Source: an uncultured Pseudomonadota bacterium (GTDB lineage: Bacteria > Pseudomonadota > Gammaproteobacteria > Burkholderiales > Methylophilaceae). Taken from it: a stretch of 54,731 nt of DNA. A model generated the notes under the pieces. That model saw nothing but the letters and a program-made list of their open reading frames with translations. It ran no database searches and was not told the origin of the DNA. The position numbers and the translations under genes are program-made. Each line of letters begins with the position of its first letter. Position 1 is the stretch's first letter. Below are positions 11,887 through 23,485 of the stretch, piece after piece. The stretch is from contig CAIYLB010000076.1 in assembly GCA_903926935.1 (NCBI GenBank), positions 1-54,731 on the forward strand. Reading direction: 5' to 3'.

Positions 11887-12219
11887 TCAATGGAATAAAG
11901 ACTTTGAGAATAAATTAATCACGACAATTCCAGAGACTATAAGCAACAAACCTATAGTTGCGCCCAAATCTAGTGGCTCCTTAAAATATAACCAGGATAT
12001 AAGTGCTACAAAGCCAACAGCAACGCCAGTCCATATAGCATATGCAATCCCCACTGGTATGTACTTAAGTGTTCTTGATAAAAAATAAATTCCGGTGGTG
12101 TACCCTAAAATAACTAAAATAGAGGGCCTTAAGTTTGTAAATCCAACCGTGTACTTTAACGCCAAAGTGGCTATTATTTCGCAAACAATAGCGACAATGA
12201 GGAATAACCACTTTTCCAT
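11887..12219 (-). CDS. SMR-family small multidrug/cation exporter (EmrE/Qac-like)
   Basis: 110 aa, four TMs, conserved TM1 Glu (AIVCEIIAT), KYTVGF and GIAYAIWTG. Confidence 0.9.
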   Translation of the reverse strand: MEKWLFLIVAIVCEIIATLALKYTVGFTNLRPSILVILGYTTGIYFLSRTLKYIPVGIAYAIWTGVAVGFVALISWLYFKEPLDLGATIGLLLIVSGIVVINLFSKSLFH

Positions 12220-13049: not shown

Positions 13050-14051
13050 CTAGATTAACAATTCATTTATTGCAGCGTTAATAAACGCACTTTCATTTGC
13101 AAATCTACCGGGCGCACCAGCGCAGTGGCCCGCCGATGAAAGTATTGGTCTTAATTCTGAATTCGGGCTTAGTGCGGCCTCAATGCTATTTTCTGCAAGA
13201 GTGAAATACTGATCATTATCGCAGGGCATGATAATTGTTTTAGCAGTCACTTGTGATAAAGCTAGCGCTAAGTCACCTTTAAATTTGTCATGAGCGCTGA
13301 CATCTGCATGCTGCCAAGTCCATATCTTAGTTAAAAGATCATTGGCATCCCAGCCCAAATGATCTTGCTCCCAATCTTCTAGTAATGCGTTTATAGAATC
13401 GAAACCGATCTCTTTATAACGCTCCTCGCGAAAGAATTCAGCTGAATAGGCCCAAGGAGCATAGGCTCTGCCAAATGCCCTGAGTCCGGCTGTTGGTTGA
13501 TTGATGTAATTACCATCGGCATAATCAACATCAGCTTGCAAAACGGATCTGATACTTTTGATAAAAATTTCGTTGTATGGCCAACAGCGCGTTGCGCCAC
13601 AAATCGGCAACAAGTTTTTAATCATTTCCGGATATAAAACTGCCCAATGCCAAACCTGCACGGCACCCATTGACCAACCTAATGCCAGCTTAATCTCGTT
13701 AACACCTAAAGCCTTTAACAAGGAGTGCTGGCATACAACGTTATCATAGACTGTGATGTTAGGAAAGCTACCAGCTGGATATCGATCTAAGGAATTACTA
13801 GGTGAAATAGATTGTGCGTTTCCAATCAAATTAGGCGTCACAATAAACCACTTATTGGGGTCTAGCGCCTGACCTTCCCCAATGATGCGAGCGTTTGATA
13901 AGTGATTGCCAGTGTAATAAGTTGGAAAAAGAATGCAGTTGTCTCCAGCTGCATTCAATCTACCCCAAGTAGCGAAAGTAAGCCAAGCATCATGGAGCAC
14001 TTCTCCACTTTGAAGGGTTATATCGCCAATTGAGAATTTTTGAATATGCAT
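13050..14051 (-). CDS. MetX/homoserine acetyltransferase-fold alpha/beta hydrolase
   Basis: TWGRLNAAGDN, GWSMG nucleophile elbow, C-terminal AGH; function probably not methionine synthesis. Confidence 0.8.
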   Translation of the reverse strand: MHIQKFSIGDITLQSGEVLHDAWLTFATWGRLNAAGDNCILFPTYYTGNHLSNARIIGEGQALDPNKWFIVTPNLIGNAQSISPSNSLDRYPAGSFPNITVYDNVVCQHSLLKALGVNEIKLALGWSMGAVQVWHWAVLYPEMIKNLLPICGATRCWPYNEIFIKSIRSVLQADVDYADGNYINQPTAGLRAFGRAYAPWAYSAEFFREERYKEIGFDSINALLEDWEQDHLGWDANDLLTKIWTWQHADVSAHDKFKGDLALALSQVTAKTIIMPCDNDQYFTLAENSIEAALSPNSELRPILSSAGHCAGAPGRFANESAFINAAINELLI

Positions 14052-14055
14052 AAAT

Positions 14056-15426
14056 TTAGAATAGTTTTAAATAACGGTCTTTTTCCCAATCACTCACATG
14101 ATTGTTGTAGCGTAGCCACTCTTCCGTTTTGTAATCTATCCAAGTTGCATGCATACTATTACCAAAAACCTGCTTCGCTAAAGGATCAAGCTTAAACATA
14201 TCAATAGCTTCTTTTAAAGACTGTGGCAGCATCTTGATGTTTAACGCCTCAAGCTCCTCAGTCGTTTTAAGATACATGTTTTCCGTATGCGGTTCGCCTG
14301 GGTCTAATTGCTGCTCTATGCCTTCAAGCCCAGCCGCCAATACCAATGCAGCTCCTAAATATGGATTACACGCACTATCAGCCGCTCGCAATTCAATGCG
14401 ACCGCCGCCCATCGGGATGCGTAGCGTGTTGGTACGATTATTGTCACCATAGCAGGCGAACACTGGGGCCCAAGTAAATCCAGACATACTACCTTTCAAT
14501 ACAAGTCGTTTGTAGCTATTCACCGTCGGAGCTACTGCGGCGCAAATTGCAGGCAAATGCTTCAACACACCAGCCATAAATTGATAACCTAATTTAGATA
14601 AGTTGCAGCCACGTGGGTCATTAGCTTCTTCAAATAGGTTTTTTCCGGTGACCTTATCTGCCAGTGACATGTTGAAGTGAGCTCCACTTCCGGCACGGTC
14701 ACCAAAAGGTTTAGGCATAAATGTCGCAAATCCGCCATGACGGCGTGCGACTTCATTGGCCATTAAGCGGAAAAATACAAAATTATCGGCCATGGTTAAG
14801 GCATCAAAATATTTGAAGTCGATTTCAAATTGTCCAATACCATCTTCGTGGTCTAATGAATAAACATCCCAGCCTAGTTCATTCATATATTTGACTAGTT
14901 CACGCATCCAATCCATATTATCTAGCAGGCGCGCGACGTCATAAGCAGGTTTATCTAAATGCTTGCGTGTTGATAGCGGTGAATAGCCACCATCTGCATC
15001 ATCCTTTAATACAAAAAACTCCGCCTCTATACCCAAATTCATGCGAAAACCCATCGCATCGGCCTTTGCTAATACATTTTTTAAAATAGTACGGCTGCAA
15101 GCCTCGAATGGCTCACCTTTAGTCCATAAGTCACTGGCAAACCAAGCAATTTCTTTATCCCAGGGCAATATCTTGCAGGAGCCTGGGTCAGGATGTGCGG
15201 CCACCTCCTCATCGCTTACATCTTGTGGCACACCTTCTAAAGCTGCACCAGTACATAATTCCGATCCTGACATCATGCGTTTATAATGCGCAATCGGCAC
15301 CATTTTTGACTTAGATACGCCATGTATGTCAACATAGCTTGCCAACATAAATTCAACCCCAGCCGCTTGCATTGCCTCTACATCGTTGCCGATATTGGCA
15401 GTTTCTGCTTGTTTTGTAACTTCCAT
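14056..15426 (-). CDS. GlnT-type (type III) glutamate--amine ligase, glutamine synthetase superfamily
   Basis: GIEAEFF, DHEDGIGQFE, FMPKP, GSGAHFN, NSYKRL, NNRT and ELR motifs. Confidence 0.85.
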   Translation of the reverse strand: MEVTKQAETANIGNDVEAMQAAGVEFMLASYVDIHGVSKSKMVPIAHYKRMMSGSELCTGAALEGVPQDVSDEEVAAHPDPGSCKILPWDKEIAWFASDLWTKGEPFEACSRTILKNVLAKADAMGFRMNLGIEAEFFVLKDDADGGYSPLSTRKHLDKPAYDVARLLDNMDWMRELVKYMNELGWDVYSLDHEDGIGQFEIDFKYFDALTMADNFVFFRLMANEVARRHGGFATFMPKPFGDRAGSGAHFNMSLADKVTGKNLFEEANDPRGCNLSKLGYQFMAGVLKHLPAICAAVAPTVNSYKRLVLKGSMSGFTWAPVFACYGDNNRTNTLRIPMGGGRIELRAADSACNPYLGAALVLAAGLEGIEQQLDPGEPHTENMYLKTTEELEALNIKMLPQSLKEAIDMFKLDPLAKQVFGNSMHATWIDYKTEEWLRYNNHVSDWEKDRYLKLF

Positions 15427-15641: not shown

Positions 15642-16640
15642 TTAATAGGCTTTATACAATGAAGGGTCAATGGCCTTGTCAATGTTTTGCGGACCTTTGT
15701 AAATGGCATTTTTTACATTAAAGTCATCAGAAATTTTAGATGAACCATAAATTGACTTTAAGCCATCCGCTTTCACAAACACGGCTTTACCTTCTTTTAA
15801 AGAGAGCAACCTAGTGCCTTTTAAGAACGTTTGATACTCAGTAGGTTTGAGGCCAACACGTGCAGACATGATTTTCACAGCATCTGCCTGAGTTTTAGGG
15901 TCATTAATATAGTCAACAACTTTACCCCAAACACCGACCACTTTTTTCCAATCCTCTTTACGATTTGAGAAGCTAGATGGACTCACTGTAAATACATCAT
16001 AAATTAGGCCCGGCGCTTGAGCTGAGGTGAAGATAGGTTTTGATCCATGAACAAGTTTTAAAGCTTGTCCTGCACTTGGTTGAAACACACCAATTGCCGC
16101 CAAATCGCCAGAAGCTAGTGCTTGTGGGGTGTCGTTGATTTTAACGTTCAAAAGCGTAACATCAGATTCTTTCATGCCAGCTTTCTCCAAACCATAGAGA
16201 AGTAAAAGATGATCAACGATGCCTAATTCCGTACCAACTTTCTTACCTTTTAAGTCTTTAAAACTTTCGACACCAGGCTTACCAATGATCATATCGTTAC
16301 CATTAGAGTAATCTGTAATCAGAACGATGACATTTTTACCCCCACCCGCACCCATGACCAAGGCGTCACCATTAGTCACGCCTACGCTGTCAAGCTTGCC
16401 GGCACTAAAAGCCTCGATTGAAGCGCCATAATCAAACCATTCAAATTTAACGTCAACGCCGGCTTCTTTAAACCAACCTTTCTCGATGGCAACCTGCCAT
16501 GCAACAAAACCTGGCCAATCGCTGTAACCTATTTTTAATGGTTGTGCGGCTTGGCTAATATTGCTAAAAGCAAAGGCTAAAGGAACAGCTGCTGTAATAA
16601 TCAGTTTTTTGAAACTTAAAACTTTTAAACGGGATTTCAT
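15642..16640 (-). CDS. ABC transporter solute-binding protein, SsuA/TauA/NMT1 type
   Basis: Signal peptide ending SQA; IGYSDWPG and DYSNGND motifs; AGGAG RBS. Confidence 0.88.
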   Translation of the reverse strand: MKSRLKVLSFKKLIITAAVPLAFAFSNISQAAQPLKIGYSDWPGFVAWQVAIEKGWFKEAGVDVKFEWFDYGASIEAFSAGKLDSVGVTNGDALVMGAGGGKNVIVLITDYSNGNDMIIGKPGVESFKDLKGKKVGTELGIVDHLLLLYGLEKAGMKESDVTLLNVKINDTPQALASGDLAAIGVFQPSAGQALKLVHGSKPIFTSAQAPGLIYDVFTVSPSSFSNRKEDWKKVVGVWGKVVDYINDPKTQADAVKIMSARVGLKPTEYQTFLKGTRLLSLKEGKAVFVKADGLKSIYGSSKISDDFNVKNAIYKGPQNIDKAIDPSLYKAY

Positions 16641-16710: not shown

Positions 16711-17421
16711 TTAAACCAATGAAAAGTTTAATATTTGTCCCTCGCGAAAAGGCAAGGTAGAGTGATTAATTCTGCCGTGCGACGCGTCTACGATGTCACC
16801 AAACGAAATTTCAAAATCCAGCCAATTAAGTATGTCCAATAGACTTTGATTTGGGCTATCAATTAACGCCAATAAACTGCTCGCTTCTGGTAGATTTGAA
16901 CTACGTGGCCGAATAAAGGCAAACTGATTACCTGCTTTTAAAAGACGTGCGATCACCACAACACCATTTGAATCGAGGCTATTAATTTGGTGCGTACTCA
17001 CGTTGATGTGAGTACCTGCTATTTTGTCCCAAACCTCAAAGTAGACACTCTCTACGCCCGTCTCTAATAGTTTGTTTTCACCACTAAATACCATCTCACC
17101 AATATCCGGAACACCATTATCTGGCTGTAAATCTAGTTCACGGTGCCAATTACATATGTTGCCGCTCACTTCTGTTACGCCTGCAAAACCCTGCTGCGTC
17201 GCCAACCAACGCAATTGTTCCGTAGAGCAATCTTGCAAGCAGGTACAGTCTGAAAAATCTGGCCGTAATGCAGGAATACGTATATCTATATGTTGATTAT
17301 CGGCCTGTAACCAAAATACCAACGAAGTCGTATCCTGACTACCGTTCTGCTCAAGTAAACTTCTACGCCATACACCTAGGTAAGAAGCCGGCACCGCTAT
17401 CAATTTATTTAGTGGGTTCAT
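16711..17421 (-). CDS. Uncharacterised protein, Hri1-like by pattern; paralog of 20596..21567
   Basis: GVWRR..DTTSLVFWLQ...IDIRIP...GFAG...W.RELD..P...DIG...E.G...YFEVW; ATG at 17421 overlaps the upstream stop. Confidence 0.7.
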   Translation of the reverse strand: MNPLNKLIAVPASYLGVWRRSLLEQNGSQDTTSLVFWLQADNQHIDIRIPALRPDFSDCTCLQDCSTEQLRWLATQQGFAGVTEVSGNICNWHRELDLQPDNGVPDIGEMVFSGENKLLETGVESVYFEVWDKIAGTHINVSTHQINSLDSNGVVVIARLLKAGNQFAFIRPRSSNLPEASSLLALIDSPNQSLLDILNWLDFEISFGDIVDASHGRINHSTLPFREGQILNFSLV

Positions 17422-18200
17422 AGGTGATACTCGGGGAAAACCTTTAATGTTCTCCAAAAAGCCATATCGTGGTTTGGCCATAACTCAGCTTTTTCAGACT
17501 TAGCCAGAGATTTTAGCTTGCGAATACTAGCAATCGCCAACTCCGTTTGACCTTGCCAACAGTTTCCTGGGGCGATTTCATCGACTATATTTTCAGTTAA
17601 ATCGGCAGCATCACCGGCCAAGATAATAGGTGCGCCAGTGGGCATTTCTATCCACAATGACATATGACCCGCGGTATGCCCTGGACTAGCTATTGCGTGC
17701 ACACCTGCCGTTAAATTATATTCGCCCTTTTTCACTTTCCAGTTTGCTTGAGCAACGATTTCATTATCAAAATAGGCTAAATCATCACGAGGATTCGCTG
17801 AGGCCAACTCGTCGGCTTGAACATGCACCTCCGCCCCACATAAATCACATAAGCCGCCGGCATGATCAAAGTGCAAATGCCCTAAGAACACAACATCAAT
17901 ATCCTGTACCGATAATCCTAGACGCGCTAGTTGGCGTGGCAAGCGTTGCGACTCATCCATATCGGGTGCGCCAAAACTAAATACTTCTGGGTTATAGTAT
18001 TTTTCTCGCTGTGAGGCATCTGCTATTTTATTGTAGTCACATCCAACATCGTACAAAATACGACCATTTCTGGTCTCGATTAAGTAGGCTAAAATTGGCG
18101 CTTCTATCATCTGTCCAGCCCCGCGATTATGCGTAGATAAAGATTTATCATAACGGTGGGTAGCGGTTAAAATCGGCCAAACTTTGGTAACGGCAGTCAT
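17418..18200 (-). CDS. Metallo-beta-lactamase-fold hydrolase, AHL-lactonase-like family
   Basis: HLHFDH, PGHTAGH, AGDA and PNHD metal ligands. Confidence 0.88.
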   Translation of the reverse strand: MTAVTKVWPILTATHRYDKSLSTHNRGAGQMIEAPILAYLIETRNGRILYDVGCDYNKIADASQREKYYNPEVFSFGAPDMDESQRLPRQLARLGLSVQDIDVVFLGHLHFDHAGGLCDLCGAEVHVQADELASANPRDDLAYFDNEIVAQANWKVKKGEYNLTAGVHAIASPGHTAGHMSLWIEMPTGAPIILAGDAADLTENIVDEIAPGNCWQGQTELAIASIRKLKSLAKSEKAELWPNHDMAFWRTLKVFPEYHL

Positions 18201-18210
18201 GGTTTTATTC

Positions 18211-19248
18211 TCACAGTGCCGTCAAGAAAGAAACACCCGCAGCACCAATAAAAGCATTCGCACTAGCATTGCTGATAACTCCATAATCATCACTTTGAAG
18301 TCTAGTAATCCTATGGCAATGGTAGGCGCTCATAAGCTTGATCATTGGAATGACAGGCAACAAGTCCAAATCACCATACAACTTTTTATGAAGAGCTGGC
18401 AATTGATGCCAAGGCACTTTTGGTTTTTCGTGATGCGCGTTGTGATAGGGGAAATTTAAAAATAATAGGTTTAACCAAGGATATTTCAGTGAGGCTAAAT
18501 TTGAATAGGTATTCGCTTGTTCGTAAGCACGATCACGAAGCTTTCCGTCTTTAACTTTACCGCCGAACCGCGCAAGATCAGATTCTAAAAAAACATCATA
18601 TGTATGTTGAAAAGCATCAGCAAATCTAAGCGCAGTGAGCATGACGCAGTAAGCTAGCAGATATAGTAGCCATGCTTTAACAGACACCCATGCCATAAGA
18701 ACAAATATGGATGCTCTAAGAGAAAAAATTATAATTAATCTTAAGCGCTTATGGTGCCATTCTGATTTAATAAATGGCAAGATAATGACTAAAAAGTGCA
18801 TGAGTATTTCAATCGCTGGAATATACATCCACTCCAAAGCTTTGATAAGGTTTCTAGCCGCCGTCGGCATATCGCGCATCACATGCTGCACATTAAAAGT
18901 AAGTACATCCGCACGATCAGCATGATGATGCATGTGTTTATCACGAATCTCTTTGAAGGTGCTGTAGCAACTACCATTCACCCATGACAAGACAGTGCCC
19001 CACGTTTTATTTGTTTTAGGTGATTTAAACAAACTCCAATGTGATAACTCATGCAGTAAATAAGCACTAATAATCAATGCCTCAGCAGTGACTAGTACAC
19101 CAGCAAAATTAACTAGCCAATGTTCTGAAAAAAGCATAAAAATACCGATCGGGTAACCAAATAATACGAATGAGAATACCGCAGAATTTTTAAGCAGATC
19201 GAGGTTAAGCTTACGCTCAAGCACTTCTATAGATTTGATAACAGACAT
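18211..19248 (-). CDS. Membrane di-iron fatty-acid-desaturase-superfamily enzyme
   Basis: Three His boxes HELSH, HMHHH and HNAHH, plus QH; hydrophobic segments. ATG at 19248 preferred, since the track's TTG start lies inside the riboswitch expression platform. Confidence 0.85.
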   Translation of the reverse strand: MSVIKSIEVLERKLNLDLLKNSAVFSFVLFGYPIGIFMLFSEHWLVNFAGVLVTAEALIISAYLLHELSHWSLFKSPKTNKTWGTVLSWVNGSCYSTFKEIRDKHMHHHADRADVLTFNVQHVMRDMPTAARNLIKALEWMYIPAIEILMHFLVIILPFIKSEWHHKRLRLIIIFSLRASIFVLMAWVSVKAWLLYLLAYCVMLTALRFADAFQHTYDVFLESDLARFGGKVKDGKLRDRAYEQANTYSNLASLKYPWLNLLFLNFPYHNAHHEKPKVPWHQLPALHKKLYGDLDLLPVIPMIKLMSAYHCHRITRLQSDDYGVISNASANAFIGAAGVSFLTAL

Positions 19249-19266
19249 AATATATCCACAGTATTT

Positions 19267-19310
19267 AAAAGCCAAAAAGACAATATTAGAATTCAGTCTC
19301 CCGGGCTTTT
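19267..19310 (-). terminator. Putative riboswitch expression platform (terminator competing with the aptamer 3' end)
   Basis: AAAAGCC-C-GGGAGAC of the aptamer can pair with downstream GUCUUUU-U-GGCUUUU. Confidence 0.7.
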
Positions 19311-19392
19311 ATCCCTCCGTGTAGCCAGTTTTAATTGGCCGAGAACTCTTGGACCAGACATTTTTATAAAAAAACCGGAACCCTAGCTCTCT
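19298..19392 (-). ncRNA. Guanidine-I (ykkC-yxkD) riboswitch aptamer
   Basis: Minus strand GAGAGCUAGGGUUCCGG...GUCUGGUCCAAGAGUUCUC-GGCCA..UGGCU-ACACGGAGGGAUAAAAGCCCGGGAG; P1 closes GAGAGC/GUUCUC. Confidence 0.95.
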
Positions 19393-19444
19393 TTTTTAAA
19401 GCAGGTAGATGTGAGTGTTAAATTGAACTACCTAAATTAATATT

Positions 19445-19460
19445 AGCAATGAACGTGCCA
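19445..19460 (-). promoter_or_regulatory. sigma54 -24/-12 promoter, operon A
   Basis: TGGCAC-GTTCA-TTGCT, exact consensus, about 50 bp upstream of the aptamer. Confidence 0.88.
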
Positions 19461-19488
19461 CTTTTTGTTAATTAACTTTATCTATTAA

Positions 19489-19501
19489 AATCAGTGTGTT
19501 G
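19489..19501. promoter_or_regulatory. IHF-like site
   Basis: AATCAGTGTGTTG fits WATCARNNNNTTR and lies between the sigma54 promoter and the candidate enhancer. Confidence 0.5.
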
Positions 19502-19545
19502 TAAATACCATGAAGCAAAAGTTGGATTTCACATATAGATTATGG

Positions 19546-19582
19546 CGCATTATTTAAGTGCACCGTTTTAAAATATGCACCA
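19546..19582. promoter_or_regulatory. NtrC-like enhancer sites
   Basis: 17-bp CGCATTATTTAAGTGCA (19546-19562) and half-site TGCACCA (19576-19582), compared with consensus TGCACCANNNTGGTGCA. Confidence 0.55.
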
Positions 19583-19710
19583 ATATTTTTAGGTTTACCT
19601 AAATAACATTAAACATCTACTTCTTAAATTTACAATGAATAGAATCAATACAAACTTAAAATAAAATTGTGAGGCATAATGAATTTTTAAAAAGCAGGTT
19701 GGGATTTTAA

Positions 19711-20595
19711 ATGCAATCAACAGCGAAATTTTGGCAAAACTGGCAAGAGTTCAGGTCTGCTCAACAAGAAATTATTCTACCGGCTGGCCAAGTCGCGCAC
19801 ACACAAGTTTCTATCCGCTATATAGACATAGGTGTCGACATACACGGCACAATTCTTTTGATGCACGGCATACCAACATGGGGATTTATCTACCATGAAG
19901 TAATTCCACTATTGGTAAAATCTGGCTACCGTGTGATCGCTCCTGACTTTTTAGGTCACGGATGGTCTGATCGTAGAGACTGTTTTGACCGATCTTTTCA
20001 AGATCAAGCAAAGATGATCGTTGCATTATTATCGGCAATCAACATAAAAAGTGTGCATGTTGTTGGGCACGATACTGGAGGTGCAGTAGCACTTATTCTA
20101 GCAATAGAACACCAACAATATGTGCGCCATCTTATAATTTCAAACGCAGTTTGCTACGATCGTTTTGATGATGATATGCTAGATTTTGGCCACCCACTCA
20201 GATGGAAAGCGCGCCCATTGAAAGACCTTGTGGATACTCTAGAACTTAGCCTTGCCATGGGAGTTTCTAACAAGAATCGACTTACGCCAGAGTTTAGACA
20301 AGGCATCATTGCGCCTTGGGCGAGTGAGGAAGGAAAGTTGAGCCTGCTTCGAAATGCATCAGCCCTTAATGCAAACCAGACCATGGCACTGGTCGATCGC
20401 CATGGCAAAATTACAGCTAAGACGATGATTCTTTGGGGAATGGATGACCCTTGGCAGAAATCAGAAGATGGCCAACAACTCGCTCAAGAAATTCCAGGAG
20501 CCATATTCAAAGGCATTTATGGCGCTTCGCATTGGCTACAACAAGACTCACCTGCAGAGTTTACTGAGGCACTTCTGGATTTTTTTCATCCTTAA
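19711..20595 (+). CDS. Alpha/beta hydrolase, epoxide hydrolase/haloalkane dehalogenase-like
   Basis: HGIP, PDFLGHGWS, GHDTGG (Asp nucleophile), WGMDD and SHW. Confidence 0.85.
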   Translation: MQSTAKFWQNWQEFRSAQQEIILPAGQVAHTQVSIRYIDIGVDIHGTILLMHGIPTWGFIYHEVIPLLVKSGYRVIAPDFLGHGWSDRRDCFDRSFQDQAKMIVALLSAINIKSVHVVGHDTGGAVALILAIEHQQYVRHLIISNAVCYDRFDDDMLDFGHPLRWKARPLKDLVDTLELSLAMGVSNKNRLTPEFRQGIIAPWASEEGKLSLLRNASALNANQTMALVDRHGKITAKTMILWGMDDPWQKSEDGQQLAQEIPGAIFKGIYGASHWLQQDSPAEFTEALLDFFHP

Positions 20596-21567
20596 CTAAA
20601 GTACTTTTGTATAGCGTGACATAGTCGATGATTCACGTTCAAACCAAGATTCTGCCTCATGAGTAAAAGCGGTCGACTGGCTAAAGTCAACATGGGATTC
20701 AAGCGTATCAATAGAAAAAATTCGTTCGCAGGGCACGCCTGCAACGGTTAGTTTTTGGCGAACAACATCCATTACTGCCGAATTTCCATACTGATATTGA
20801 GTTATGCACTCAAATCCTTCTAAGCAAAATAAATCTTGCCCCATCCGGGATGCTTGTGTTGAATGGATCACGTTAAAACCTTGCTGAACCGAGCCTTTAG
20901 CCACGGAGGTCTCAAAGTTTAATAAACTTGTCAAAAGTCCAATATCACCACTAGCATTTGCGACCAAACTCTTAAGCGTGGCCCCTGGCACCTTATTAAA
21001 AAATTCTGGCCCACGTCCTAACACCAATCCAGCATAGTCTCCGCAGACTATTAATCCACCACCGCTATGTCGAACTTCTCCGGTGGAAAGATTACGCTCT
21101 TCTATCAGATTTAGCCCCACCAACGGCCCCGAACTAGAAGGCTGTAAACGCCAATCTTCAACATAAGCATCGCTAGGGCAAAACTCAACCATACAATTAC
21201 CAACACGCTTTAATATGGCCGGCTCGGTCCAGCGATTGTGCAGTTGGAATGAAGCATTAGCTTCCTGCCAACTTAATATTTCGCCATCCCAGTCTGAAGC
21301 CGCTAACCAGCCCTCATAGTTGGCAACTTGCTGTAACTCATCTTCAGAATACTCAAGCAAAGGCTTCGCTACTACTTGGTCAGCATCACGAGGCAAACGA
21401 AGGTCAATGCTAAAGTTACGACTCTGTAACCAGCACACATGTGTTTTAAGGTCAGTCATACCATTAGCAAAACTAATCGAATAACGCTTAAAGAAACCCA
21501 GCATCCAATCAGGTACACTATGCTCAGGGCGTTTACCATGTAGCTCGACTAGTTCTTGCAGCTTCAT
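20596..21567 (-). CDS. Uncharacterised protein coupled to the 2OG dioxygenase; candidate hydroxymethyl-guanidine lyase
   Basis: Start overlaps the dioxygenase stop; VCWLQ...IDLRLP and YVEDW motifs shared with 16711..17421. Function is inference. Confidence 0.65.
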   Translation of the reverse strand: MKLQELVELHGKRPEHSVPDWMLGFFKRYSISFANGMTDLKTHVCWLQSRNFSIDLRLPRDADQVVAKPLLEYSEDELQQVANYEGWLAASDWDGEILSWQEANASFQLHNRWTEPAILKRVGNCMVEFCPSDAYVEDWRLQPSSSGPLVGLNLIEERNLSTGEVRHSGGGLIVCGDYAGLVLGRGPEFFNKVPGATLKSLVANASGDIGLLTSLLNFETSVAKGSVQQGFNVIHSTQASRMGQDLFCLEGFECITQYQYGNSAVMDVVRQKLTVAGVPCERIFSIDTLESHVDFSQSTAFTHEAESWFERESSTMSRYTKVL

Positions 21568-22637
21568 TTAGTTAGCTCCACAGATTCTAAATGAGATTGC
21601 GGCTTATGCCCAAAAGATGACAACCCTTTTGCGCCATCGGGTAATACCAAGGCACCATTAGCTAGACGATTTTTGAGATAGGCAAAGGTTTGCATAGTTT
21701 GTGCATATAGATGCTCCCCACATACTATCGGTTTATAGTGCGAAGGCTTATCTGTCGATAAAAGTGATTCTATAGGCTTTATCACCGTGTCATAATCACA
21801 TGCGCAGAACAATGGAAACGAGTAGCGCTCCTGCTTTACTTTTCTTACCCTATGCATGGTTGCGACGAAATATCCATTGCTTAACACTTCCAGCATGTCA
21901 CCAATATTGATAACAAAAGCTCCACTTACAACTGGCGCATCGATCCACTCCATGGCGCCATTCTGGACCTCCAAACCATCCTCGGTGGCTAGCAGAATGG
22001 TGAAACATTCGTAATCTGTGTGGGCTCCTATTCCAGGCCTATCTTCTGGGGCCGCTGGACTAAAAGGATAATGCACAAGTCGCAATTGACTTGGTGGCGC
22101 AGTGACTTTATTGGTGAAATAATCTTCTGGCAGATTCAAGGCCAAAGCAAAGCCTCGGAATAGCGCATTACTTAACGCAAAAACTGCATCGTAATAGGCC
22201 TTGACATCTTCTTTAAATCTAGGGAAATCTGGCCAGCGATTTGGGCCTAACATTGGTCTACGTACTTCTGACTGCTTAAGATCAAAACCAACATCGTAAG
22301 CTTCTTTGAGATCTGGCTTGGCTGAAAGATACTGCTCTTCGCCCTCAGGGACATAGCCACTGTGATTGGAAGAGTTGCCTATATAATCCTGCATCTTTTG
22401 CTCATAGGTCTGAGAAAAATATTCACGAGTGCGTGTCTTGAGATTTTCAATCAAATCTTGCTGCACACCATGTCCTACAATGTAAAGAAAACCTGCATCA
22501 CGTGCTGCATTTCCAAGTGCTTTTGCAGCTTCCTTACGTTCGGTAAGATCGGATGAAAATAATAAAGAGATATCTATCAGTGGTAGTTTCTTAAAGGCTG
22601 TATGTGGGCGAACCGGACTAATCTGAACTTCAGACAT
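21564..22637 (-). CDS. 2-oxoglutarate/Fe(II) dioxygenase, IPNS-like family
   Basis: LPLIDIS, GFLYIVGHG, HTD...H facial triad (HTDYEC, MHRV) and RYS; ATG at 22637 after an AAAGGA RBS. Confidence 0.92.
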   Translation of the reverse strand: MSEVQISPVRPHTAFKKLPLIDISLLFSSDLTERKEAAKALGNAARDAGFLYIVGHGVQQDLIENLKTRTREYFSQTYEQKMQDYIGNSSNHSGYVPEGEEQYLSAKPDLKEAYDVGFDLKQSEVRRPMLGPNRWPDFPRFKEDVKAYYDAVFALSNALFRGFALALNLPEDYFTNKVTAPPSQLRLVHYPFSPAAPEDRPGIGAHTDYECFTILLATEDGLEVQNGAMEWIDAPVVSGAFVINIGDMLEVLSNGYFVATMHRVRKVKQERYSFPLFCACDYDTVIKPIESLLSTDKPSHYKPIVCGEHLYAQTMQTFAYLKNRLANGALVLPDGAKGLSSFGHKPQSHLESVELTK

Positions 22638-22658: not shown

Positions 22659-22764
22659 CTGGTCGTCCAGTTGAGGTTTGTTGAGCTAATAAAATCTAAC
22701 AAAGCACATAACCGACATATTTTTGCTCTTATGCTCGCTAAGAACCATCCTAGGTCGTCCCAGG
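22659..22764 (-). ncRNA. Guanidine-II (mini-ykkC) riboswitch-like hairpin pair with long linker
   Basis: P1 CCUGGG-ACGA-CCUAGG (22749-22764) and P2 CUGG-ACGA-CCAG (22659-22670), with P2 just ahead of the RBS; 78-nt linker. Confidence 0.75.
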
Positions 22765-22805: not shown

Positions 22806-23146
22806 AACATATAGCAGACTGCTAGATGTGAATTTTCGTTTTTATTTTGTAGTGGGCAAAACACTTCATTTAAGGCGAATTAGCCCTTATGATTAGAATA
22901 GCGCGAGTAAATCTTACTATTCATACTAGGAGCAGCATATTCTATTCATTAATTTCTTGGTACATTAGCATGCGTGACGCACCAAATTGAAGCCATCTTG
23001 GGGATTCATCTGAGAAGAGCTAACCGCAAAAACATACCAATCGAGCCAGCATTTGGCTTGCCCCTCAAATAGATAAGCTAAAGCTCATTATGCACACGTC
23101 AAAGCTGATTATTCGTATGTGAAAGTGACAATTAAAGAGTGAGAGT

Positions 23147-23485
23147 GAAGCTGGCCGATAAGCCGGGTTCTGTAGGCCTTATTACTAAGGCTGACAGTCA
23201 TTCATCTAGGCGCACAATTACTTGTACGCTCAAGCAACCTACCCGCTGGCAGCGCGAACCACGCCTTATTAACCGAAGTTAAAGCGCCAGCCTATTTGGT
23301 CTTGCTGCGAATGGAGGTTACCGCGTTTCACCGTAACTTAATACGCTCGTCTCTGTGGCCCTATTCCGCGCCTTATACTTGGTTGCCCAAGCTTTCAACG
23401 TACGGCCGTTAGCCGTCATCCCGCTCTATGCAGCCCGGACTTTCCTCCCCTCACTTACGTGAGCGGCGACTGTCTAGCCAGCTTC
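23147..23485 (-). ncRNA. rnpB: RNase P RNA, class A
   Basis: GAAGCUGGC ends pair; GAGGAAAGUCCGGGC and ACAGAACCCGGCUUA universal motifs. Confidence 0.98.

Follow-up and report, generated by a model that had tools for sequence, protein, structure and literature searches.

Two diverged homologs of the lyase MgdL with an Hri1-like predicted fold, each encoded behind an oxygenase gene in a Methylophilaceae bacterium

The closest described system to the genes considered here is that of Vreelandella boliviensis, in which the lyase MgdL (UniProt A0A265DXW6) cleaves N-(hydroxymethyl)guanidine and is encoded behind the dioxygenase MgdH (UniProt A0A265DXP8) inside a gca operon (Sinn et al., 2025; PMC12508155). 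Residues D49 and R51 of MgdL are essential by mutagenesis, D112 and E126 bind guanidine in a model, and the guanidine-II riboswitch of this organism binds both methylguanidine and guanidine (PMC12508155). That paper presents MgdL as a one-off activity whose sequence gives no hint to its function and leaves the natural source of methylguanidine open, its main text describes one pair of enzymes with desaturases and paralogs unmentioned, and the terms ‘Hri1’, ‘YLR301’ and ‘lipocalin’ occur neither in the text nor in the supplements. Hri1 (YLR301w) is a yeast protein with a structure in the PDB (3RBY) and is described in PMC4660637 as being without known function. Here we analyze two genes, termed A and B, on a contig of an uncultured Methylophilaceae bacterium (CAIYLB010000076.1 of assembly GCA_903926935.1), the whole analyzed stretch of 54,731 nt being referred to as the window.

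The products of the two genes are homologous to each other and to MgdL, the models of both have the two-domain fold of Hri1, and each gene is placed behind an oxygenase gene, as the original prediction had proposed, B directly after a dioxygenase and A in an operon led by a desaturase-type enzyme. We put at roughly 60% the probability that A and B are each a carbinolamine lyase for their own neighboring oxygenase, converting an N-(1-hydroxyalkyl)guanidine to an aldehyde and a less-substituted guanidine. Taken separately, lyase activity is very probable for A and probable for B, and the view that A serves the desaturase-type enzyme, its putative partner, is slightly favored. This chemistry is already known from MgdH and MgdL. 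What is new with respect to the literature consulted, including the relevant portions of two reviews (PMC12186494; PMC12623156), is the B branch with its dioxygenase paralog and RNA element, the pairing with a desaturase, a second pair in V. boliviensis and the structural tie to Hri1, and the leading results of a literature search contained no paper that connects MgdL with Hri1 or guanidine riboswitches with a desaturase.

Both reading frames were confirmed on the minus strand. The start of A is placed at 17421 because of the overlap with the stop codon of the preceding metallo-beta-lactamase-fold hydrolase gene (a shared ATGA) and the lengths of its relatives, and the start at 17481 of a longer open reading frame was rejected. 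The collinear motifs from which paralogy had been predicted (LGVWRR/LGFFKR, VFWLQ..IDIRIP/VCWLQ..IDLRLP, QQGF/YEGW, and YFEVW/YVEDW) were all found, and the relationship is real by sequence comparison: pairwise BLASTP gives 31% identity over 86 amino acids (aa; E 4e-8) in an alignment confined to the first ∼90 residues, and alignment of profiles built from 120 A-family and 121 B-family proteins extends over 221 columns (probability 98.9, E 2.3e-17). B has an additional N-terminal helix and ∼75 additional residues at its C-terminus. The nearest named database relatives of A are from Methylophilaceae and those of B from Methylotenera, Gallionellales and Pseudomonas, with a strong match to A in ∼19 and to B in 3 of the 201 genomes of the family; all such counts of loci and genomes are inflated by kin and near-duplicates and do not represent independent events. 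A search of a plasmid collection with A gave no match, and no fused forms of the lyase were found among proteins of 572–2000 aa, in a weak search that left the range of 414–571 aa uncovered.

The original prediction had considered this family to be uncharacterized, which is incorrect, since MgdL is a characterized member and A is 31.1% identical to it over 238 aa (E 4e-28), above the cut of ≥30% identity to MgdL used to define homologs in PMC12508155. Residues D46, R48, D106, and E120 of A align to D49, R51, D112, and E126 of MgdL and are kept in 132, 130, 131, and 131, respectively, of 133 distant relatives, and A has equivalents also of MgdL W16, R18, W40, Q42, F82, W99, R101, E135, and W137. 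B is best classed as a distant paralog rather than as MgdL, from which it differs in its 24% identity, in being ∼75–90 aa longer and in forming its own branch, although a profile of the B family does match MgdL (E 6.7e-5). The profile alignment places D55, R57, E115, and E128 of B on the four residues of A, so that B has the same catalytic pair as MgdL; D55, R57, and E128 are invariant in 105/105 B proteins and E115, a conservative Asp-to-Glu change with respect to MgdL D112, is present in 104 of them. A FastTree phylogeny of 53 proteins resolves the B (support 1.0), MgdL (1.0) and a third type (0.999) as branches that track the type of oxygenase.

An Hri1-like pattern had initially been recognized by eye, and structural comparison gave 3RBY as the top match by Z score for both proteins. 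The AlphaFold models have high confidence (predicted local distance difference test scores of 95.3 for A and 92.1 for B). When the A model was compared with 48,161 PDB representatives, 3RBY aligned over both domains (Z 13.9, root-mean-square deviation 3.8, 182 residues aligned), with the next row at Z 11.6 and, like those after it, covering only the N-terminal lipocalin-like barrel; in Foldseek 3RBY ranks second (E 2.6e-3). For B, where Foldseek hits were re-ranked by Z, 3RBY again came first (Z 13.4, root-mean-square deviation 3.5, 201 aligned; next row Z 8.2), and it was the sole Foldseek match with E < 0.001 (E 2.2e-5). At the level of sequence the identity of A and B to Hri1 is 10–13%. The Pfam HRI1 family (PF16815, gathering cut-off 27 bits) scores A at 20.4 bits and matches 16 of the 133 distant A-type proteins at E 0.001, and its cut-off is passed, over the N-terminal barrel, by 11 of 16 A relatives that had been pre-selected for a precomputed HRI1 label, whereas B, MgdL and all of 105 B-family members gave no match. 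Neither A and B themselves, nor three profiles, nor one relative retrieved 3RBY when used as queries in PDB sequence searches; the link to Hri1 rests on the Pfam scores and predicted folds. By modeled fold and transitive sequence links A and B are therefore Hri1-like, and neither is a formal member of the Pfam family.

Co-occurrence with oxygenases was examined by scanning all reading frames of gene neighborhoods with profiles. The dioxygenase preceding B is 53.8% identical to MgdH over 333 aa and its stop codon shares ATGA with the start of B, a 4-nt overlap. An MgdH-like gene lies ≤1.2 kb upstream of B in 74 of 83 B loci (80 metagenomic and 3 genomic, with L101, which encodes an intermediate family member, excluded), and eight of the nine misses have <200 nt upstream of the called reading frame, leaving L052 as a true miss. 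Many B loci adjoin gca/cgdAB and transporter genes led by guanidine-I riboswitches; the guanidine riboswitch and gca context are shared with MgdL. Within the family an MgdH-like gene is present in 6/201 genomes, each time with A or B ≤1.6 kb downstream, and in the V. boliviensis family each of the 11 lyase matches, which come from 8 of 121 genomes, immediately follows a 2-oxoglutarate dioxygenase gene of one of two types. V. boliviensis itself contains a second such pair, in which the dioxygenase has 342 aa and 42% identity to MgdH and the paralog of MgdL has 258 aa. In a quick unrooted tree of dioxygenases, made from a sample biased toward B and including four long or spurious rows, the 64 B-linked sequences are set apart from the rest by a branch supported at 96. 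While 89 columns are invariant over 70 MgdH-type and B-linked dioxygenases, the latter differ from eight MgdH-type sequences at six fixed columns (F49L, R91S, E117D, W253L, V287I, and A307C), and these changes, R91S and E117D among them, hint that the substrate may be shifted from that of MgdH. A profile of the B-linked dioxygenases matched this genome alone among 331 of the order. Prediction of a complex between B and its dioxygenase gave a score of 0.00 and no verdict, and is counted neither for nor against the pairing.

Unlike MgdH within its gca operon, the B-linked dioxygenases have their own leader, which in the window consists of two ACGR-loop hairpins closed by G-C pairs, with the loops 92 nt apart and the second hairpin adjoining the ribosome-binding site. 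This arrangement resembles that of the guanidine-II riboswitch (RF01068), with its two GG-ACGR-CC hairpins next to the ribosome-binding site, but B-linked leaders have loops 25–93 nt apart, a second-hairpin consensus of their own (in 56 of 61, compared to 0/33 gca leaders) and scores below the Rfam cut-off of 32 bits, namely 11.2 bits in the window and 20.5–24.7 bits in three of four relatives, with the cut-off reached by none of 13 B-linked loci. No RNA holder is listed for the region, which folds no better than shuffled sequences (z 0.57). The pattern occurs once in the 2.23-Mb assembly, and it is found ahead of 58 of the 71 dioxygenase copies for which sufficient upstream sequence was available, compared to its presence in 72 of 5000 random windows. 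In all of 33 distinct leaders positions 3–5 of the P1 stem, which were not imposed by the search, are paired, with two-sided (compensatory) changes. Comparative sequence analysis thus points to the element likely being a guanidine-II subtype and a putative riboswitch.

A lies in an operon headed by a guanidine-I riboswitch, which is followed in order by the genes for the desaturase, a metallo-beta-lactamase-fold (MBL) hydrolase, A, a binding protein, GlnT and a MetX-like hydrolase (Table 1). In contrast to MgdL, A thus follows a desaturase-type enzyme and a lactonase-type hydrolase rather than an MgdH-like dioxygenase directly. In relatives too the MBL hydrolase usually sits between the desaturase and A. 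The desaturase is located ≤5 kb upstream of A in 23 of the 30 A-type loci and MgdH immediately upstream in another 2, and 5 loci lack both. The operon of close relatives continues with genes for an ABC transporter and a creatininase-like protein and then with GlnT, cgdAB, gca and atzF. Three more distant operons, also led by a guanidine-I riboswitch (L099:9596-17349, L130:8367-16051, and L131), encode, in this order, a binding protein, the desaturase, short-chain dehydrogenase(s), EamA, creatininase, an isochorismatase-type (biuret-hydrolase-like) amidase, in some cases the MBL hydrolase, and A, and the creatininases of L130 and L099 score above the TIGR04448 cut-off of 235 (373 and 352, respectively). 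The creatininase genes in the A operons of relatives suggest, from gene content, that the operon may serve an oxidative route for creatinine or creatine. An old report, cited in a section of the review PMC12623156, has S. stutzeri converting creatinine to methylguanidine and acetate.

Table 1. Features of the window surrounding genes A and B
Feature	Positions	Strand	Details
MetX-like alpha/beta hydrolase, PRK07581 subfamily	13050..14051	minus	NF005757 403 bits, cut-off 332
Type III glutamine-synthetase-like ligase GlnT	14056..15426	minus	TIGR03105 550 bits, cut-off 470
NMT1/SsuA-type ABC substrate-binding protein	15642..16640	minus	Profile matches
Protein A	16711..17421	minus	236 aa; MgdL-type carbinolamine lyase homolog; Hri1 fold (predicted)
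MBL-fold hydrolase, AiiA/4-pyridoxolactonase type	17418..18200	minus	NCBIfam 135 bits, under both cut-offs
Fatty-acid-desaturase-family membrane di-iron enzyme	18211..19248	minus	PF00487 E 6e-30; His boxes HELSH, HMHHH, HNAHH
Guanidine-I riboswitch heading desaturase operon	19296..19397	minus	RF00442, 95.4 bits, cut-off 63
Alpha/beta hydrolase, convergent with B	19711..20595	plus	Abhydrolase_1
Protein B	20596..21567	minus	323 aa; distant paralog; D55/R57/E115/E128
2-oxoglutarate/Fe(II) dioxygenase, MgdH paralog	21564..22637	minus	DIOX_N + 2OG-FeII_Oxy; HTD..HRV..RYS motifs
Guanidine-II (mini-ykkC)-like twin hairpins, likely riboswitch	22659..22764	minus	GG-ACGA-CC twice; directly 5′ of dioxygenase ribosome-binding site

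With a predicted Hri1 fold, an oxygenase and a guanidine-type RNA switch for each, A and B likely complete the removal of substituents from guanidines, yielding free guanidine as a source of nitrogen. In the mechanism that we propose, guanidine or methylguanidine would turn on both operons. The MgdH-like dioxygenase would hydroxylate an N-methyl group and B would then free formaldehyde, with Asp55 acting as base and Arg57 as acid, the odds being about even between methylguanidine and a bulkier substrate such as N,N-dimethylguanidine. In the other operon the di-iron enzyme would act on a small guanidine taken up from outside, hydroxylating the carbon that adjoins a guanidino nitrogen. The lactonase-type hydrolase would, where needed, open a ring or amide, and A would cleave the product; here a creatinine- or creatine-type substrate has slightly more than one chance in three, methylguanidine about one in four and another compound some two in five. 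The guanidine would enter the guanidine carboxylase pathway, whose gca, cgdAB, and atzF genes are on contigs C245 and C144 of this genome, and formaldehyde would enter one-carbon metabolism, for which there are two Fae genes.

The published activity of MgdL and the retention of its D49 and R51 in both A and B speak for the resolution of carbinolamines that was originally predicted, while the part of that prediction in which the desaturase generates the carbinolamine for A is still tentative, and several observations weigh against assigning each protein to its own oxygenase. B falls under the 30% identity cut for MgdL homologs (23.9% over 226 aa, E 0.01), and the desaturase-linked lyases do not form a single supported branch in the phylogeny. 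Of the A-type loci, 5/30 are without an oxygenase within ∼9.5 kb upstream, and of seven other desaturase matches in 401 genomes (36–41% identity) four are without the lyase in the region examined, with a genome-wide search of three of these four genomes also giving no lyase match. The creatinine or creatine route is disfavored by the failure to find creatininase in this assembly, which is 95% complete, and by the score of 111 against the TIGR04448 cut-off of 235 for the creatininase-like gene of a close relative. Finally, an MgdH-like gene is present within the desaturase/A operon of three genomes (L102, L114, and L121), where A could serve the MgdH-like enzyme instead. This last arrangement leads to an alternative, which we regard as unlikely, in which both operons contribute to one demethylation chain, the dioxygenase and B catalyzing a first step (for example, on dimethylguanidine) and A acting as a plain MgdL on N-(hydroxymethyl)guanidine of any source, with the desaturase and lactonase upstream having no need of A. 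Such a chain would accord with A being the closer relative of MgdL and with the presence of three of the oxygenase-free A loci in gca clusters, and room for a second lyase exists because hydroxylated dimethylguanidine is not a substrate of MgdL (PMC12508155). It does not, however, account for the ∼19 family genomes with a strong match to A when only 6 of 201 have an MgdH-like gene, for the linkage of A to the desaturase by translational overlap or by ≤11 nt in five loci, or for genome G410, which has the dioxygenase and B with no match at the level of A.

The identity of the di-iron enzyme and of B could also be questioned. The di-iron enzyme might instead be a true desaturase, converting an alkylguanidine to an enamine or imine, with A as a hydratase or tautomerase. 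This would fit with FA_desaturase being the only Pfam family of the enzyme, but it is improbable in view of the full MgdL pocket that is kept in A, and membrane di-iron enzymes of the AlkB type can also hydroxylate. Desaturation of arginine is known from NapI, which belongs to another enzyme class (PMC12508155). The possibility that B, and perhaps Hri1 too, is a non-catalytic lipocalin-like protein that binds or scaffolds alongside the dioxygenase seems more remote still. Lipocalin-like barrels are indeed the structural neighbors that come after 3RBY for both models, and B lacks R94, which is invariant in the A family, and has additional invariant residues in its C-terminus, yet the invariance of D55 and R57 in all 105 B proteins and the position of B directly behind an MgdH-like gene, which is that of MgdL, speak against such a role.

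With these loci MgdL becomes one member of a family that has several oxygenase partners and is tied by predicted structure to a yeast protein without known function, and specific enzymes and an RNA element emerge as candidates for assay. If the di-iron enzyme does hydroxylate a guanidino compound, the desaturase family would gain a new chemistry and methylguanidine and guanidine would have a candidate enzymatic source, with relevance to nitrogen cycling and to the breakdown of metformin-related compounds. A much broader scenario, which we consider doubtful, is that the Hri1 fold defines a general family of carbinolamine lyases extending from bacteria to yeast Hri1, with branches that co-diversified with at least four oxygenases, in which one of these, the di-iron ‘desaturase’, opens an undescribed oxidative route from creatinine or creatine to methylguanidine or guanidine and B is the missing lyase for demethylation of dimethylguanidine under its own guanidine-II subtype.

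Some further features were seen near these genes. The alpha/beta hydrolase that is convergent with B is also found beside the B unit in L015, L054, L055, L057, and L107, and a 189-aa protein matched by no Pfam or NCBIfam model is encoded directly after B at L054:2804-3373 and likewise in L055, L059, L060, L062-L064, and L067. RNase P RNA (RF00010) is at 23143-23485 of the window, 500 nt upstream of the dioxygenase gene, and the cluster lies between it and mraZ; the G+C content is 38–43% in parts of the 10–20 kb region compared to 44–46% in the first 10 kb. The second pair of V. boliviensis (L140:4672-15842, on contig C1 of genome G981) has as neighbors a PhyH-type dioxygenase gene, an ABC transporter and genes of class II aldolase-like, LysR-like, and agmatinase-like type, and similar pairs are present in L146-L149 and L151. 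The intermediate family member at L101:6227-14364 (268 aa) is beside agmatinase-like and Rieske-type oxygenase genes, the latter a possible further oxygenase partner.

In the surroundings of A, an SMR-family exporter gene is located 830 nt downstream of the operon (window 11887-12219) and scores nearer to the Qac/EmrE models than to the SugE/Gdx guanidine exporter. A second guanidine-I-like leader is found on another contig of this genome (G000 contig C33:1-2882), followed by genes for a binding protein, a permease and an ATPase that is cut by the contig end, and at the spot following these transporter genes relatives carry a creatininase-like gene. A reading of guanitoxin GntB as a desaturase-family arginine hydroxylase was dropped, as it was unsupported by the relevant passage of PMC12371840. 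The remoter, lyase-free desaturase homologs (36–41% identity) are those of L133:8497-16448, L134, L132, and L135; in L133 the neighbors are genes for a xylose-isomerase-like TIM barrel, an ABC transporter, GlnT and a MetX-like protein, and in L132 the gene adjoins cgdAB and gca. In L121 (genome G414) the cluster from desaturase to gca is fragmented by several frameshifts, affecting the desaturase, A, creatininase-like, GlnT, and cgd genes, through either decay or assembly error.

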